Virus record (IMG/VR): IMGVR_UViG_3300007734_000754
Span: 1-64,000 of that record
Direction: 5' to 3' (one strand)
Length of the DNA: 64,000 nt
Origin: a virus
Taxonomy: Duplodnaviria; Heunggongvirae; Uroviricota; Caudoviricetes
Part shown: piece after piece, positions 3,771 through 44,909 of the stretch
How the letters are laid out: every line of letters begins with the position of its first letter
Position numbering within the stretch: position 1 is the first letter of the stretch
The notes under the pieces: model-generated
The model's input: the letters and a program-made list of their open reading frames with translations, nothing else
The model's database searches: none
What the model was told of the DNA's origin: nothing
Program-made: the position numbers and the translations under genes

Positions 3771-5216
3771 ATGAAAGAAAAATTTCGTTATGTTAAGAAA
3801 GAGGATCGTAAGAAGATTCTTTTGTTATGCGATGATATTAGGATGCATTCCGGTATCGCAACTATGGCTAGAGAGATTGTTGTAGGAACAGCACATCACT
3901 TCAATTGGCTGAATGTAGGAGCAGCAATTAATCATCCTGAAGTAGGAAAAGGGTTTGATATCTCTCCCGAAGTAAATACTATTGCAGGATTAGATGATTC
4001 ATGGGTAAGAGTACTACCTAGTAATGGTTACGGAGATGCAATGCTTGTTAGAAATTTAATCGCTCAAGAAAAGCCAGATGCAATTTTTATCTTCACTGAT
4101 CCAAGATATTGGACTTGGTTATTTGAAATTGAAAGAGAAATTAGAAGTCAAATTCCAATCCACTATTTAAACATTTGGGATGATCTTCCAACACCTCTTT
4201 ATAATAAATCATACTATGAATCATGTGATTTATTGATGGCTATCTCAAAACAAACTAAAAATATTAATGAAATAGTTTTAGGAGAAACAGCTAAAGATAA
4301 AATTATCAAGTATGTTCCTCATGGAATAAATCATGAGCACTTCTTTCCTATTAGACAAGGTCATGAACATTACGATGTACTACAAGAGTTTAAAAAGAAT
4401 ATGTTTGGTGGAAAAGAGATTGACTTTATAGTTTTATTTAATTCAAGAAACATCAGAAGAAAATCACCAGGGGATGTAATTCTTTCTTATAAAATGTTTT
4501 GTGATTTAATTGGAGAAGAAAAATCAAAACGATGTGCTCTTGTAATGCATACACAACCTGTAGATGAGAATGGTACAGATCTTTATGCAGTAAGAGAAGC
4601 TCTATGTGATGAAAATTACGTAAATGTATTTTTCTCTCAGGATAAATTAGAAACTCCGCAGATGAACTTGCTTTACAATATAGCAGATGTAGGATTACTT
4701 ATTACTTCAAACGAAGGATGGGGATTATCTTTAACTGAAACTATGATGGCTGGTAGAATGATTATTGCAAACGTTACTGGGGGTATGCAAGATCAAATGA
4801 GATTTACAGATAAAGATGGTGAGTGGATTGACTTTAGTTCAGACTTCCCTTCTAATCACAGAGGAACTTATACAGATTGTGGAGAGTGGGCAGTACCGGT
4901 ATTCCCTTCAAACATATCCTTAGTTGGATCAGTTCCTACACCTTATATCTTTGATGATAGATGTGCCCCGGAAGATGTAGCAAAGGCTATTGAGCAGGTA
5001 TATAACATGCCTAAAGAAGAGAGAGATGCTAAAGGACTAAAAGCAAGAGAATGGGTAACATCGGATGAATCAGGAATGTCAGCAAGACAAATGTGTGAGA
5101 ATGTAATAGATGCAATGGATGAATCATTTGAAAAGTTCACACCAAGAGCAAGATTTGAATTATATAAAATAGAAGATAGACCAAAGAAACGTATAACACA
5201 TAAATTATTATACTAA
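3771..5216 (+). CDS. glycosyltransferase family 4 (GT-B fold)
   Basis: EGWGLSLTETMMAG matches the GT4 E-x7-E donor-binding motif. Confidence 0.7.
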   Translation: MKEKFRYVKKEDRKKILLLCDDIRMHSGIATMAREIVVGTAHHFNWLNVGAAINHPEVGKGFDISPEVNTIAGLDDSWVRVLPSNGYGDAMLVRNLIAQEKPDAIFIFTDPRYWTWLFEIEREIRSQIPIHYLNIWDDLPTPLYNKSYYESCDLLMAISKQTKNINEIVLGETAKDKIIKYVPHGINHEHFFPIRQGHEHYDVLQEFKKNMFGGKEIDFIVLFNSRNIRRKSPGDVILSYKMFCDLIGEEKSKRCALVMHTQPVDENGTDLYAVREALCDENYVNVFFSQDKLETPQMNLLYNIADVGLLITSNEGWGLSLTETMMAGRMIIANVTGGMQDQMRFTDKDGEWIDFSSDFPSNHRGTYTDCGEWAVPVFPSNISLVGSVPTPYIFDDRCAPEDVAKAIEQVYNMPKEERDAKGLKAREWVTSDESGMSARQMCENVIDAMDESFEKFTPRARFELYKIEDRPKKRITHKLLY

Positions 5217-5219
5217 GTT

Positions 5220-6512
5220 ATGAATAAACCAACAGTAGTAGTAAGTTGTCCAATTGACACTTACTCAGGATATGGAGCAAGAGCAAGAGATTTCGTACAA
5301 TCAATTATCGATTTAGATAAGTACGATGTAAAAATATTAGGACAAAGATGGGGAGGAACCAGATTTGGATACTTAAAAGATCACAACAACGAATCTTTAG
5401 CATCTAGAATTATTCCGCAAATGACACAGCAACCAGATATCTGGATCCAAATTACAGTACCAAATGAATTTCAAAAGGTTGGTAAATATAACATTGGAGT
5501 AACAGCAGGAATTGAAACAACACTTTGTGACGGTTCTTGGATTGAAGGTTGTAATAGAATGGACTTAGTTCTAGTATCAGCACAACATGCTAAAAAGGTA
5601 TTTGAAGAAAGTAAATTCAATTTACAAGATAATCAAACAGGACAAATTACAGGTCACCTAGCATTAACAACAAAAGTTGAAGTTGTATTTGAAGGAGCTG
5701 ACATAGAGAAATATACACCATTAGCTTTTCCAACTAAAATAGATCTTTCAGATATAGATGAACAGTTTTGCTTTCTAACAGTAGGTCACTGGCTTCCAGG
5801 AGAGGTAGGAGAGGATAGAAAGAATATAGGATACACTATTAAAGCATTCTTAGAAACATTTAAGAATAAACCTAAAGGAAAACGTCCAGCACTTATCTTA
5901 AAAGTACAAGCAGGAATTGGAACTTCTATTATGGATAGAGAGGAAGTATTAAATAAAATTGATACAATAAGACAGACTGTAAAAGGTGATCTACCAAACA
6001 TTTACCTACTACATGGCGATATAACTGATGCTGAAGTAAATGAATTATATAATCACGGTAGGGTAAAAGCAATGATTTCTCTTACAAAAGGAGAAGGATT
6101 TGGTAGACCTTTACTGGAGTTTAGTTTAGTAAATAAGCCAATTATAGCTTCTTTCTGGTCAGGACATACAGACTTTTTAGATGCTGAATTTGTAAAGTAT
6201 GTAGGAGGTAAACTTACAAACGTACATCCTTCTGCAGCAGTCGATAAAATGTTATTAAGAGAAAGTCAATGGTTTTCACCGGATCCTATCGAAGTAGGTA
6301 GAGCATTTAAAGACATTTACGAAGATTACGATAAATGGAAGACTGCAGCAAAAAGACAAGGACATAAGAGCAGAACTAACTTCTCTTATGAAAAGATGAG
6401 AGAGACGGTAGATACCCTGTTAACACAACATATTCCCGAGTTTCCTAAGCAAGTTCAATTAAAATTACCACAATTGAAAAAAATAGAGTTACCTAAATTA
6501 AATAAAGTATAA
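5220..6512 (+). CDS. glycosyltransferase, GT4-like
   Basis: GEGFGRPLLEFSLVNKPIIAS resembles the GT4 E-x7-E region. N-terminal Rossmann-like half. Confidence 0.5.
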   Translation: MNKPTVVVSCPIDTYSGYGARARDFVQSIIDLDKYDVKILGQRWGGTRFGYLKDHNNESLASRIIPQMTQQPDIWIQITVPNEFQKVGKYNIGVTAGIETTLCDGSWIEGCNRMDLVLVSAQHAKKVFEESKFNLQDNQTGQITGHLALTTKVEVVFEGADIEKYTPLAFPTKIDLSDIDEQFCFLTVGHWLPGEVGEDRKNIGYTIKAFLETFKNKPKGKRPALILKVQAGIGTSIMDREEVLNKIDTIRQTVKGDLPNIYLLHGDITDAEVNELYNHGRVKAMISLTKGEGFGRPLLEFSLVNKPIIASFWSGHTDFLDAEFVKYVGGKLTNVHPSAAVDKMLLRESQWFSPDPIEVGRAFKDIYEDYDKWKTAAKRQGHKSRTNFSYEKMRETVDTLLTQHIPEFPKQVQLKLPQLKKIELPKLNKV

Positions 6513-19447: not shown

Positions 19448-19488
19448 AGTTCTTATCTTTAGGAAGTAATAATAAAAACAAATAAGTT

Positions 19489-29869: not shown

Positions 29870-30126
29870 CCGTAAGAGAACTAATACAAAGTCTAAGTAA
29901 GATAGAAGACCAAGACATAAGAGTAATGGTAAGAGGCTATGAAGGAGGAGTAGATGATATAGTAATAGGAAATGGTATAGATAATAATACTATAGTAATT
30001 CCAGCAATACAGTATGTAGCCTTAGATGTAAATACGGAATGGTATTACGGTACACATGAAATAGTATATAATATGTACGGGGGTATTAATAGCAATTACC
30101 ATATAGTAAAAGCAATAGTTCTATAG
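29866..30126 (+). CDS. hypothetical protein
   Basis: ATGA overlap. Confidence 0.4.
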   Translation: MTVRELIQSLSKIEDQDIRVMVRGYEGGVDDIVIGNGIDNNTIVIPAIQYVALDVNTEWYYGTHEIVYNMYGGINSNYHIVKAIVL

Positions 30127-30660
30127 GCTAGATACCCGTTTGTAACCCGTTCCGATACCCAATTCGTTACCCATTCCATACCCGTTTCTGTCCCCGTTTT
30201 ATACCCGTTTATACATACGTACGTACCTGGAGAGATACATGGAGAGACATAGAGAGAACTACTGAGAAACATAGTAAAAGGTTAATGACTTTGGCTAAAC
30301 ATAAAGAGTAGTAAAGACCTAGGAAGAGTATAAAGACATATAGTACTTGGTATGAAAAGGTACTGTATATGATATACGATGTGTAGTAAAAGGAATAGGC
30401 TAGGGTAGAATTAGTATAGGAAAAATGAGGGGGATGTGCCTCCCTAATAACTTTTCTCTATAATAGGGGTTGTCTATGACTCTATAGACCCGTTCTAGCT
30501 ACCCATTTGTAACCCGTCCCTATAGACGACAGGGAGAGAGTGTAAGGAGAAACCCGGTTTTGGTACCCATTTGTAACCCGTTGATAGACCCGTTCTAGTG
30601 ACCCGTCCGGCTACCCGTTAGAGACCCGTTCTGTAACCCGGGAAAAAACCCAAAAAAGAG
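30127..30660. repeat. noncoding iteron region: about 18 ACCCGTT-like motifs in two clusters phased at about 11 bp, flanking a purine-rich spacer
   Basis: Motif positions: 30134, 30146, 30158, 30170, 30180, 30192, 30203 and 30487, 30501, 30512, 30552, 30566, 30577, 30588, 30601, 30612, 30623, 30634. No ORF longer than 60 aa. Confidence 0.6.
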
Positions 30661-30709
30661 TTGCTAGACTGAAATAAAGTTCTTATCTTTAGGTATCAAT
30701 AAGAAAGAT

Positions 30710-30925
30710 ATGGAAAAACTGATAGAATTAAACGAGGTAGTTGGAAAGGATTGTTCCTGTAATGGATCCCCTACCCTAAGAGCTAAACTGGTTAGTGTGG
30801 GTGAGGAATGGTGTATCCTAGAAATCACTCCAAGGGTATACTCCAGGGATGAATCCAAGGACGTATTTATTGGTAACAGAGTTAGGGTTAGTACATCCTA
30901 TGCCTATAACCTTTATTATGCCTAA
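30710..30925 (+). CDS. hypothetical protein
   Basis: Canonical cassette promoter upstream. Confidence 0.4.
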   Translation: MEKLIELNEVVGKDCSCNGSPTLRAKLVSVGEEWCILEITPRVYSRDESKDVFIGNRVRVSTSYAYNLYYA

Positions 30926-30926
30926 T

Positions 30927-31070
30927 ATGAAAACAATCCAGGTCACTCTCCAGGAGAGGTGGGCAGCCTCCAGGCACAAGGTCCACAAGTCAAAAAAATC
31001 CTACACCAGGAAAAACAAGCACAAAGAAAAAGGGCCCTCCAGGCCCTCTCTTTTTTTCAAAAAAATTTGA
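30927..31070 (+). CDS. possible 47-aa highly basic peptide; alternatively noncoding structured RNA
   Basis: Lys/Arg/His-rich translation. The region is unusually GC-rich with three CTCCAGG repeats and contains the bidirectional terminator. Confidence 0.2.
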   Translation: MKTIQVTLQERWAASRHKVHKSKKSYTRKNKHKEKGPSRPSLFFKKI

Positions 31071-31135
31071 GTATAAGGTACCGGCCCGTCTACTCTTCCG
31101 ACTCTCTTTCAAAGCCAGGCCCCTTATATATCTCC
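31025..31135 (-). ncRNA. candidate small RNA 1 (about 110 nt), minus strand
   Basis: Minus-strand canonical promoter (AGTTGCC, about 20 nt, CGTATCTTTAGGTAC; plus-strand coordinates 31144..31190) points left. Transcript ends at the bidirectional terminator. No ORF. Confidence 0.45.
31032..31060. terminator. bidirectional intrinsic terminator (GGGCC-CTCCA-GGCCC) with A-run upstream and T-run downstream
   Basis: Perfect 5-bp GC stem flanked by A5 on the left and T7 on the right. Confidence 0.6.
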
Positions 31136-31223
31136 CTCTAACGTACCTAAAGATACGAACTATTCTCCATATAGGCAACTTTTTTACAAACTTTTTTTAT
31201 TTTTTTTTTAGACAGCAGAACAT

Positions 31224-31280
31224 GGTGTACCGGACCGTCTACTCTTCCGACAGTATTGCAGTGCCAGGCCCCCTATCTCT
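31224..31280 (-). ncRNA. candidate small RNA 2, minus strand, paralog of sRNA 1
   Basis: Second copy of the GTACCGGnCCGTCTACTCTTCCGAC...GCCAGGCCCC unit with its own minus-strand promoter (TTTG, then CGTATCTTTAGGTA at 31288..31301). 3' end undefined; may read through into sRNA 1. Confidence 0.35.
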
Positions 31281-31433
31281 TTGATAGTACCTAAAGATAC
31301 GGAGAATAATTCATACTACAAACTTTTTTAGTAACTTTTTTTTAATTTATAATGAGTATAAATAACGAAATAAAGTTGGAGCCTATTATCTTATTTCCTA
31401 TCTTTAGGTATCAATAATTAAAACATAGAAAAT

Positions 31434-31829
31434 ATGATCAACACAATTCAAAGTTTAAACGTAGTAAATATGATTGGAGATAGAAAAGGTATCTTCCAGG
31501 CCATTACAAAAGTACCAGCAGGCTTTATGTCAGCATATGAGATAGGATCTGAATTACCTTCTCTTAATAGATGGAAGAAAGGAGCTCTTCAAACAATTCA
31601 ATTCCAGCCTGAAGGATCTAATGCATGGCTTACAGTATTTGCTAGAAAAGGTACTAAGGTACTTATAATGGATCTTCAGATAGCTGAGCAATTGGAAGTA
31701 GGAACAGTTAATCAATTGTTTTCTAATACAAATCTTTATGATCAGAATCAATATCAATCAATGAAAGCTAAAACATGGGCTGATAAAGTTTTTGTTATTA
31801 ATAAACATAACTTAGAAAAAAGTTGCTAG
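31434..31829 (+). CDS. hypothetical protein (cassette gene)
   Basis: Promoter + leader + ORF + agttgctagttc terminator. Confidence 0.45.
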   Translation: MINTIQSLNVVNMIGDRKGIFQAITKVPAGFMSAYEIGSELPSLNRWKKGALQTIQFQPEGSNAWLTVFARKGTKVLIMDLQIAEQLEVGTVNQLFSNTNLYDQNQYQSMKAKTWADKVFVINKHNLEKSC

Positions 31830-31881
31830 TTCCCTTTCTTTTACTTATCTTTAGGTATTAATAATTAAAACATCAATAAAA

Positions 31882-32058
31882 ATGAAACATCCAAATTATC
31901 CAAAAGCAACAAATCAGTATTTAGGTAGTACAACTACTAAACCTTTAAATCAATCTTCCAAAGAAGCTCTAGATCAAAATCTATTAGAATTTAGAATTAG
32001 GTTAAATGGAATTATTGCTAGAAAAGAAAAGGAAAAATTAGAGAAAAAAAGTTGGTAA
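31882..32058 (+). CDS. 58-aa small protein (absent from track)
   Basis: ATG at canonical distance from the cassette promoter at 31845. Terminator gttgcctcttcggaggcaa follows. Confidence 0.35.
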   Translation: MKHPNYPKATNQYLGSTTTKPLNQSSKEALDQNLLEFRIRLNGIIARKEKEKLEKKSW

Positions 32059-44130: not shown

Positions 44131-44909
44131 TGGCTATAAAATCAAAAATAAGTAAAATAGTATCAAGTCAGATAGGGCCACTACAGGGAAAATTAAGATC
44201 TGAAGTTCAAAAGAAAGTTTTACAGCTTTTAAAAGAATTTGCAAATGGATGCCCTAATGTAGAGGCAATGAAGCGTATTATAGCAATTAGAAATAACTTA
44301 TTAAACGCTATAAATCTTTTTCAGCAAAGAGTAGACGCTATAAAGCCTGTAGTAAACAATCTTACACCAGTTATAAGTACTGCTAAAGTAGCCTTAGAGG
44401 TAATAATTAATTTACCAACTCCTACAGCAATTATACCACCACAAACTGGAGGAATAGGTGTTCCTATGTCAGTCTTAAATAGATATAGTAAAACAATAGG
44501 TATACTAACAAAAACAATTGATGTACTTGAAGCAGATGTAGAAGCAGTTAATTCAATAACAAAGTCAGTATCAATACCTATAAGTACATTAAGAGATAAG
44601 CTACAATCTATTGATTTAAAGATAGCAGAATGTTCAAAAAACAACCCAGGAATAGCTAGCATACTTGCAGCAGCACAGCCAAAAGGGAATACAGGGTCAG
44701 AAGGGACACCAGATGCTAGTTACGAATATAAAGGGTATAAGTTAGAAATAGTGCAGGATCCTAATTCACCTAAAATTGCACCAAAAAGGTACGCAATTGC
44801 AAAAAATAAAGTAGGACTAGTGGTACTGTACGGAGAATCCTCATTTAGTTCAGATACGAAAGTACTACTAGATGAAATAAAATTTAGAATAGATAATCAA
44901 TTACCATAA
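44130..44909 (+). CDS. structural/baseplate protein
   Basis: Position. Coding-quality ORF. Confidence 0.35.
   Translation: MAIKSKISKIVSSQIGPLQGKLRSEVQKKVLQLLKEFANGCPNVEAMKRIIAIRNNLLNAINLFQQRVDAIKPVVNNLTPVISTAKVALEVIINLPTPTAIIPPQTGGIGVPMSVLNRYSKTIGILTKTIDVLEADVEAVNSITKSVSIPISTLRDKLQSIDLKIAECSKNNPGIASILAAAQPKGNTGSEGTPDASYEYKGYKLEIVQDPNSPKIAPKRYAIAKNKVGLVVLYGESSFSSDTKVLLDEIKFRIDNQLP

Follow-up and report, generated by a model that had tools for sequence, protein, structure and literature searches.

Two tandem genes for a putative small structured RNA run against the early genes of a phage related to Flavobacterium phage immuto

Results

Two reversed promoters in an array of early-gene cassettes

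The window analysed here (64,000 nt, positions 1 to 64,000 of the tailed-phage record IMGVR_UViG_3300007734_000754) is, over parts of the region, ~80% identical to Flavobacterium phage vB_FspM_immuto, a Baltic Sea myovirus of 160 kb. Between positions 19452 and 39641 it carries 27 co-oriented promoter cassettes with near-identical upstream regions, each driving one small ORF. These plus-strand cassettes consist of an A-tract, GTTTG, AGTTGC, ~20 nt, CGTATMTTTAGGTA and then a conserved leader, TCAATAATTAAAACATATAA, followed by the ATG. The 19.4–39.6-kb stretch looks like a modular early-gene region, and its cassette promoter resembles the Bacteroidetes TTG / TAnnTTTG type.

The promoter box CGTATCTTTAGGTA occurs 29 times in the window at up to two mismatches, compared with 0.69 copies expected by chance. 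On the plus strand there are 27 copies, all within 19.4–39.6 kb. The other two lie on the minus strand, at 31144–31157 and 31288–31301; here the plus strand reads TACCTAAAGATACG, which is CGTATCTTTAGGTA on the minus strand, and both are exact. The box scan thus bears out the inverted copies that an earlier reading of the sequence, the initial annotation, had reported at 31144 and 31288. That annotation had also seen a proper −33 element ~20 nt from each reversed box. Alignment of the 29 cassettes confirmed this and showed that both reversed boxes belong to full cassettes, with the A-tract, GTTTG and AGTTGCC or AGTTTGT ~20 nt upstream, in line with the 27 others. Each reversed copy therefore combines the exact 14-nt box with the entire upstream cassette of the genome's functional promoters. 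An ATG follows the box within ~25–50 nt in all 27 plus-strand copies and in neither of the reversed ones (next 50 nt). The two had been described as the sole promoters against the coding direction in 18 kb, and this holds more widely, as they are the only reversed box copies in the entire 64 kb.

Two paralogous units follow the reversed promoters

Behind the reversed promoters lie two minus-strand units, at 31060–31139 (unit 1) and 31209–31288 (unit 2), spaced 149 nt apart and each with its own promoter (Table 1). Their paralogy, already proposed, was upheld: 53 of 80 aligned positions are identical, and the 17-mer CCGTCTACTCTTCCGAC that they share occurs in the window only at 31086 and 31235. 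For the RNA of unit 1 (RNA1) a start at ~31143 and an end at ~31022 are predicted, hence a length of ~120 nt, close to the ~110 nt suggested before. A scan of both strands called a terminator-like hairpin at 31027–31051 in either direction, in agreement with the bidirectional terminator assigned to unit 1; its plus-strand side comprises a hairpin at 31031–31047 and a T-tract. RNA1 thus has an intrinsic terminator of its own at its 3′ end, and RNA2 shares it. The same scan found no terminator belonging to RNA2 between 31178 and 31222, ahead of the RNA1 promoter, so RNA2 probably reads through RNA1 to 31022, giving ~265 nt.

The segment had further been called markedly GC-rich. This is true of the two cores (GC 0.51 and 0.58 versus 0.327 for the window), but not of the whole flagged span, which reaches only 0.40, nor of the spacer (0.24). 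The RNA strand has a purine content of 60–65%.

Table 1. Positions of the two RNA genes, their promoters and the convergent small ORF in the window
Feature	Position	Strand	Details	Basis
RNA2 promoter	31288..31346	−	−7 box CGTATCTTTAGGTA 31288–31301; −33-like AGTTTGT 31318–31324; A-tract upstream	exact box match, 29-cassette alignment
RNA2 conserved core	31209..31288	−		covariance-model match, 71.8 bits, E 7e-24
RNA2 GGGGGCCUGG	31273→31264	−		
RNA2 P3 hairpin	31261–31267 pairs with 31247–31253	−		
RNA2 invariant internal loop	31246→31231	−	AAGAGUAGACGGUCCG	
RNA2 tentative closing helix, 3′ strand	starts at 31230	−		
RNA1 promoter	31144..31202	−	−7 box 31144–31157; −33 AGTTGCC 31174–31180; GTTTG and A-tract upstream	box match, cassette alignment
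RNA1 leader and conserved core	31060..31143	−		covariance-model match, 82.8 bits, E 4e-28
RNA1 tentative closing helix P1	31119–31128 pairs with 31072–31081	−	UAUAAGGGGC / GUACCUUAUA	
RNA1 P3 hairpin	31112–31118 pairs with 31098–31104	−	loop 31105–31111	
RNA1 invariant 16-nt internal loop	31097→31082	−	AAGAGUAGACGGGCCG	
RNA1 3′ part	31022..31059	−	A/U-rich spacer, then intrinsic terminator: stem 31051→31027, U-tract to ~31022	
Stretch within RNA core			AAGAGUAGAC	
Small basic ORF, 47 aa (MKTIQVTLQERWAASRHKVHKSKKSYTRKNKHKEKG...)	30927..31070	+	convergent with the RNA; tentatively ArfA-like	

The units belong to a family found across phage lineages

Relatives were collected with three independent pattern scans: the core 17-mer; CAGGCCC with the promoter box, the core not being required; and the promoter with GGGCCTG and GGAAGAGT. 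The yield was dozens of contigs from IMG/VR and 91 from metagenomes, most of them from lakes and some marine. A covariance model, R1, built from 31 diverse members matches the window exactly twice, at unit 1 and unit 2 and both times on the minus strand. In the related loci it gives 91 matches, comprising 78 distinct sequences and all scoring at least 46 bits. A fourth scan, without a promoter requirement, added ~40 loci in other phage lineages, and divergent lineages score down to ~20–43 bits with the model. Distinct relatives number ~100, in contigs of phages and of lake or marine metagenomes, and the family is common to well over a hundred uncultured phage contigs. It is often duplicated, with two copies per contig in several contigs. 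In a set of 50,697 records of cultured phages, the RNA is confined to the immuto phages; immuto itself has a single homologous unit, which likewise lies behind a reversed copy of the promoter. When a genome collection was scanned with the pattern GGGCCTG N8-30 GGAAGAGTRGA, at least 120 matches were obtained, mostly by chance, and among the matches listed, bacterial genome stretches with both invariant words scored at most 25 bits, versus at least 46 for the immuto-type family.

Members always lie just downstream (0–30 nt) of the recurrent promoter of the phage that carries them, and at least three promoter types are involved. In one other lineage (L365, L381, L386, L387, L402, L422 and L423), the RNA begins with GGGCCUG, at +1 of another promoter-like motif that recurs there, TATAGCAyACAG-N-ACG-N8-TGATAATATAwAT and then G; within these contigs the motif also lies ahead of protein genes. 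Erf-like, exonuclease and sigma-factor genes are found near the RNA in this lineage, and a 10-bp terminator hairpin (GUGACGUUAG...CUAAUGUCAC) follows it. In another, the RNA lies ~10 nt after a cttatctttg box of the TAnnTTTG type, and the cassette is co-oriented with its neighbours. A number of relatives (positions 4040–4110 of the immuto locus, L001; also L002, L012, L014, L045 and others) contain arrays of AT-rich palindromes between the RNA core and the terminator, of the form ACTTAAAG-N5-CTTTAAC or, in another subgroup, ACTGAAAG...CTTTCACTTCCATCAACACTTTA. The window has none of these arrays. They might form hairpins in the RNA or be bound by a dimeric protein.

Rfam 15, with its models for tmRNA, tRNA, 6S, SRP, 5S, Flavo-1, freshwater motifs and the known ribozymes and riboswitches, gave no match at gathering thresholds in the whole window and, at E up to 10 over 30000–32000, only chance matches to the terminator hairpin; ARAGORN called no tRNA or tmRNA genes in the window. 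Literature searches by sequence string and by topic returned nothing on this RNA. As it is covered by no Rfam family, literature or annotation, the RNA is new as a family, phage sRNAs as a kind being known.

Compensatory changes maintain a hairpin on the strand predicted to be transcribed

GC-richness had been offered as an argument for structure. It did not hold up as such, because single-sequence folding of either strand was not significantly more stable than that of shuffles (z = −1.2 to −1.75); the predicted structure rests on comparison, not on energy. RNAalifold, applied to an unguided MAFFT alignment, predicts one helix, which is P3. Pairing of P3 in the model-based alignments amounts to 96.0% for 78 distinct sequences; for a second set of 67 distinct sequences, to which the distant lineages contribute, it is 92.3%. 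Sliding the partner strand by 1–3 columns leaves only 22–47% paired, and none of 500 shuffles reached the covariation score of P3. Compensatory double changes occur at four of its seven pairs (for example G.U/A-U/G-C/C-G, C-G/U-A/A-U and U-A/A-U/C-G). The covariation check with homologous phages that had been suggested for the segment thus had a positive outcome for this helix. The three basal pairs of P3, C-G, U.G and G-C, are invariant, and the distal pairs covary. Many members are capped by U[GNRA+N]A or GNRA loops; the apical loop itself is not conserved (GAGA, CUCU, UUAA and others). As U.G and G.U pairs are invariant or dominant at columns 24–44, 26–42 and 29–39, and as the complementary strand would keep only ~62% of cells paired (counted from the pair table), the fold belongs to the strand that the promoters would transcribe.

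Two blocks are invariant in the family, GGGCCUG on the 5′ side and GGAAGAGURGAC. The purine-rich loop on the 3′ side, between P3 and the closing helix, is 16 nt long, and its first ten bases, AAGAGURGAC, are invariant. A closing helix P1 between the 5′ GGG(G) and the C-rich stretch 3′ of this loop is plausible; two registers were tried, with 73% and 60% of cells paired, so that we treat P1 as tentative. Beyond clade differences, no convincing covarying column pairs were seen in the leader, loop or tail.

Possible base pairing of the invariant loop with a target

One explanation for an RNA of this kind is antisense action by base pairing. Its seed would be the invariant single-stranded stretch AAGAGURGAC, perhaps joined by GGGCCUG, and its target a conserved host mRNA, rRNA, tRNA or tmRNA, or a phage mRNA beyond the window. 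A stretch of 10–12 invariant nucleotides is indeed predicted to be unpaired in all members, and the standalone layout of promoter, RNA and terminator is typical of trans-acting sRNAs. However, the best non-self duplex in the 64 kb (−19 kcal/mol) falls on a strand not expected to be transcribed and within the range of shuffled seeds (−13.7 to −21.4), and complements of the 17-mer at up to three mismatches occur in the window only at the two RNA genes themselves. The conserved CGGAAGAGUAGACGG core, proposed in the initial annotation as the part to be searched for complementary targets, therefore has none in the window better than those of shuffled seeds. At 44320–44335 on the minus strand, CGTCTACTCTTT contains a 12-nt complement of the invariant loop; this strand is not expected to be transcribed, and the duplex energy lies within the shuffled-seed range. 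A seed also leaves the invariant paired positions, including the fixed U.G, unexplained. Since pairing does not need these positions, recognition of a folded surface explains them better, and we regard antisense action as unlikely.

A convergent, tentatively ArfA-like ORF shares the terminator

The small basic ORF convergent with RNA1 runs through the terminator hairpin (31031–31047) and its T-tract to a stop codon that lies beyond, at 31068–31070. This suggests that its terminated mRNA would lack a stop codon, as in arfA; the E. coli arfA ORF likewise runs through a hairpin. The same design is found in two distant homologues (L302 and L316). In the clade, 104 RNA copies are convergent with such an ORF (42–49 aa), at a distance of 25–1006 nt and mostly <250 nt, and the terminator is shared. 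Purifying selection on the ORF is clear: QERWAA and KSKKxYxRKxKH vary hardly or not at all. Throughout the ORF family the KSKKSYTRKNKH motif shows next to no variation, and the family thereby has the basic C-terminal motif of the KGKGSYxRKGKH type that is typical of ArfA. Two homologues are named 'alternative rescue factor ArfA' by JGI. Against the PDB, the family profile matched ArfA chains over the KSKKxYxRKxKH motif, weakly (E 0.85–9.7), and hhalign of the family with a manually entered E. coli ArfA sequence gave E 0.0012 at only 19% probability. Pfam returned no ArfA match for the ORF and DUF7230 only below threshold, NCBIfam returned no match, and the contig index has no exact match to the product. 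The 47-aa ORF possibly encodes a ribosome-rescue factor and, if genuinely ArfA-like, would be a case in which a phage supplies such a factor itself.

The RNA could be coupled to this gene, either as a cis-antisense RNA acting on the read-through mRNA in the manner of lambda OOP, or as a decoy of tmRNA–SmpB that spares the non-stop product from tagging. The 104 convergent copies with a shared terminator, the passage of the ORF through the hairpin as in E. coli arfA, and the two homologues named ArfA together with the profile matches over the basic motif are all consistent with such a coupling. However, the ArfA-like family, present in at least 65 viral contigs, lacks the RNA at 34 of 65 loci, and ~40 RNA loci in other lineages have no ArfA-like ORF nearby, so a link to ribosome rescue is not general. 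An obligatory ribonucleoprotein of the RNA and the product of the adjacent ORF was rejected on the basis of the same loci. Nor is there an obligatory overlap with a target on the opposite strand, as only the terminator region (~31022–31070) overlaps the ORF, and cis-antisense action would need no conserved structured core. The RNA has no similarity to tmRNA or tRNA in Rfam at E up to 10, ARAGORN was negative, and the ArfA assignment itself is weak (PDB E values of 0.85–9.7, and in Pfam only the sub-threshold DUF7230). Overall, we judge a functional coupling to the neighbouring gene improbable.

Iteron-type repeats beyond the RNA genes

All nine exact copies of ACCCGTT in the window lie at 30134–30630, compared with 1.97 expected in the whole window. 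Repeats of this type form clusters at 30125–30210 and 30480–30640, with a spacing of ~11 bp and 400–1000 bp from the RNA. The spacer between the clusters (30210–30480) has purine-rich GAGAGAyA repeats (tacctggagagatacatggagagacatagagagaac), a GC hairpin at 30428–30445 and no convincing ORF. ACCCGTT-type arrays are also present in immuto (L001 3400–3560), and a divergent relative has GGCCGGGT repeats downstream of its RNA (L209 ~5700–5770). The ACCCGTT arrays are candidates for a replication origin or a regulator-binding array.

As the reversed promoters would fire toward these iterons, their purine-rich product might prime or activate an origin, in the way invoked for the R-loops of T4 ori(uvsY), for ColE1 RNA II and in early ideas on lambda oop. 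In line with this, every exact repeat copy lies downstream of the RNA in its own direction, immuto has the same layout, the divergent member has its own repeats downstream, and the RNA strand is purine-rich. On the other hand, a strong terminator and two plus-strand genes separate the RNA from the iterons, in other lineages the RNA cassette is co-oriented, sits among ordinary promoters and genes and was seen with no iterons, and the cumulative GC skew is unchanged at 31 kb. A transcript serving an origin is very improbable on this evidence.

The units do not behave as coding sequence

The initial annotation had stated that the units contain no ORF. This goes too far: unit 1 is overlapped by a mechanical ORF on either strand (30959–31141, plus; 30990–31178, minus), and GenBank lists a 32-aa plus-strand CDS over the immuto unit (L001 4117–4215), the 'hypothetical protein' immuto26A_125 (QQO91804.1; MAYRPVYSSDSLSKPGP...). 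Nonetheless, these ORFs do not behave as coding. An ORF that starts with ATG, GTG or TTG spans the core on the plus strand at only 40 of 69 loci, and the remaining 29 are without any start; at two loci (L013 and L007), a stop directly precedes the plus-strand frame and there is no start. Conservation of the core by codon phase is 0.81/0.85/0.83, which shows no three-base periodicity. In contrast, synonymous change is plentiful in the adjacent small ORF, including switches of serine codons from TCA to AGC. A small protein would be expected to have a start in all members and a codon-position pattern, and neither was found; no reading frame is conserved. The codon-phase and ORF-start tests across loci thus gave no coding signal that would point to translation of the region, which the annotation had named as evidence that would speak against RNA genes. 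The immuto26A_125 CDS lies opposite the RNA core, on the other strand, and was probably called in error.

The least probable explanation is that the element is no RNA gene but a tiny plus-strand protein, as annotated in immuto, or a DNA-level protein-binding site or single-stranded DNA hairpin. In its favour are the GenBank CDS, a C-rich plus strand that in most members has no stop in any of the three frames, and length classes of the hairpin that differ by 3 nt, but the missing starts and upstream stops, the lack of third-position relaxation next to an ORF rich in synonymous change, stem changes that would mean radical changes of a peptide, a fold that depends on minus-strand G.U pairs, and a promoter of the local type always 0–30 nt ahead of the element all argue against it.

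Discussion

In this study, we analysed a phage segment that we read, with a probability of roughly 0.6, as a tandem pair of paralogous genes whose product, a small non-coding RNA with a defined structure, would be made early and bind a conserved partner in trans. The parts of this reading differ in strength. That these are genuine genes for a structured non-coding RNA is very probable. The proposal of two tandem minus-strand small-RNA genes under inverted early promoters, with which the initial annotation began, was borne out by complete cassettes, a family that follows the promoters, a covarying hairpin and the lack of coding signal, and the strand specificity of the fold and the distribution across phages are likewise shown. 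Only tentatively do we propose how the RNA acts, namely in trans, by using its invariant loop and the base of P3 to bind a conserved protein or another macromolecule.

We suggest the following model. A complete inverted host-type early promoter (Bacteroidetes-like TTG ... TAnnTTTA) ahead of each RNA gene would drive leftward transcription, so that both RNAs would be made early and against all neighbouring genes. RNA1, of ~120 nt, is predicted to end at the bidirectional intrinsic terminator, and RNA2 would either read through RNA1 to this shared terminator or undergo processing. The ~60-nt core would form one irregular hairpin, in which a short closing helix with the 5′ GGG(G) is followed by the 7-bp P3 and then by the purine-rich loop on the 3′ side. 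If abundant early in infection, the RNA could act in trans, where it would bind, and probably titrate or re-program, a highly conserved macromolecule of the host or the phage, most likely a protein. The features recognised would be the invariant loop and, with it, the invariant base of P3; antisense pairing is the less likely mode. A core of ~60 nt with absolutely conserved nucleotides, found behind at least three promoter types and frequently duplicated, points to strong selection and to a conserved molecular partner.

A more specific form of this model is a new kind of phage device for countering or taking over the host, in which the RNA, abundant and early, would serve as a decoy: its invariant loop would imitate a universally conserved surface of a host RNA and titrate the protein partner of that RNA. 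Candidates would be SmpB/tmRNA trans-translation or an RNA-guided or RNA-sensing defence system. We consider such a decoy a rather remote prospect. Were it a decoy of SmpB/tmRNA, the adjacent non-stop ArfA-like factor would accumulate and take over ribosome rescue. A decoy would also account for the spread of the RNA across unrelated lineages of Bacteroidota phages under varied promoters.

Phage-encoded small RNAs are known, but to our knowledge only a handful have been assigned a fold, a family or a function, and hardly any are known from phages of Bacteroidota. As one member of the family described here is carried by a cultured phage–host pair (immuto on Flavobacterium sp. LMO8), the prediction is directly testable. 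The covariance model can also be used to correct the probably spurious CDS annotation.

By eye, parts of the RNA recall the 5′ and 3′ ends of tmRNA, the sarcin–ricin loop, 5S loop E and SRP domain IV, as well as Cas9 tracrRNA, kink-turn and loop-E motifs. These resemblances were dropped, as they have no support from Rfam and involve non-conserved positions.

Among known systems, lambda OOP RNA (77 nt) is similar in several respects. It too is short, phage-encoded and equipped with a promoter and an intrinsic terminator of its own. It runs against the early operon, converges on a small regulatory gene whose 3′ end it overlaps, and has iteron-type repeats nearby. However, OOP is purely cis-antisense to cII, whereas the Flavobacterium-phage RNA has a structured core that does not overlap its neighbour, belongs to a family that also occurs co-oriented and without that neighbour, and has no sequence or Rfam relationship to OOP. 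T4 species 1 and 2 (RNA C and D) and the sRNAs of Pseudomonas phage PAK_P3 are abundant short non-coding RNAs under standard phage promoters, with roles that are unknown or partly known. The RNA described here is likewise short, non-coding and placed behind standard phage promoters, but it shares no sequence or structural similarity with them; in addition, the T4 RNAs lie in a tRNA cluster and are processed like tRNAs, whereas the window is without tRNA genes.

In its architecture, with an invariant purine-rich asymmetric loop and fixed flanking pairs, the RNA resembles recognition platforms such as lambda boxB–N, HIV RRE–Rev and TAR–Tat. Those hairpins are cis-acting parts of mRNAs, with short peptides as their defined partners, whereas the Flavobacterium-phage RNA is a predicted standalone transcript with a variable apical loop. 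RNA anti-CRISPRs, which imitate CRISPR repeats, and other phage decoys such as pseudo-ToxI are small, highly expressed phage RNAs, sometimes in tandem, that mimic a host RNA and titrate a host protein. The RNAs of the window are also small and present in tandem copies, but unlike a repeat array, the two units are 149 nt apart and each has a promoter of its own.
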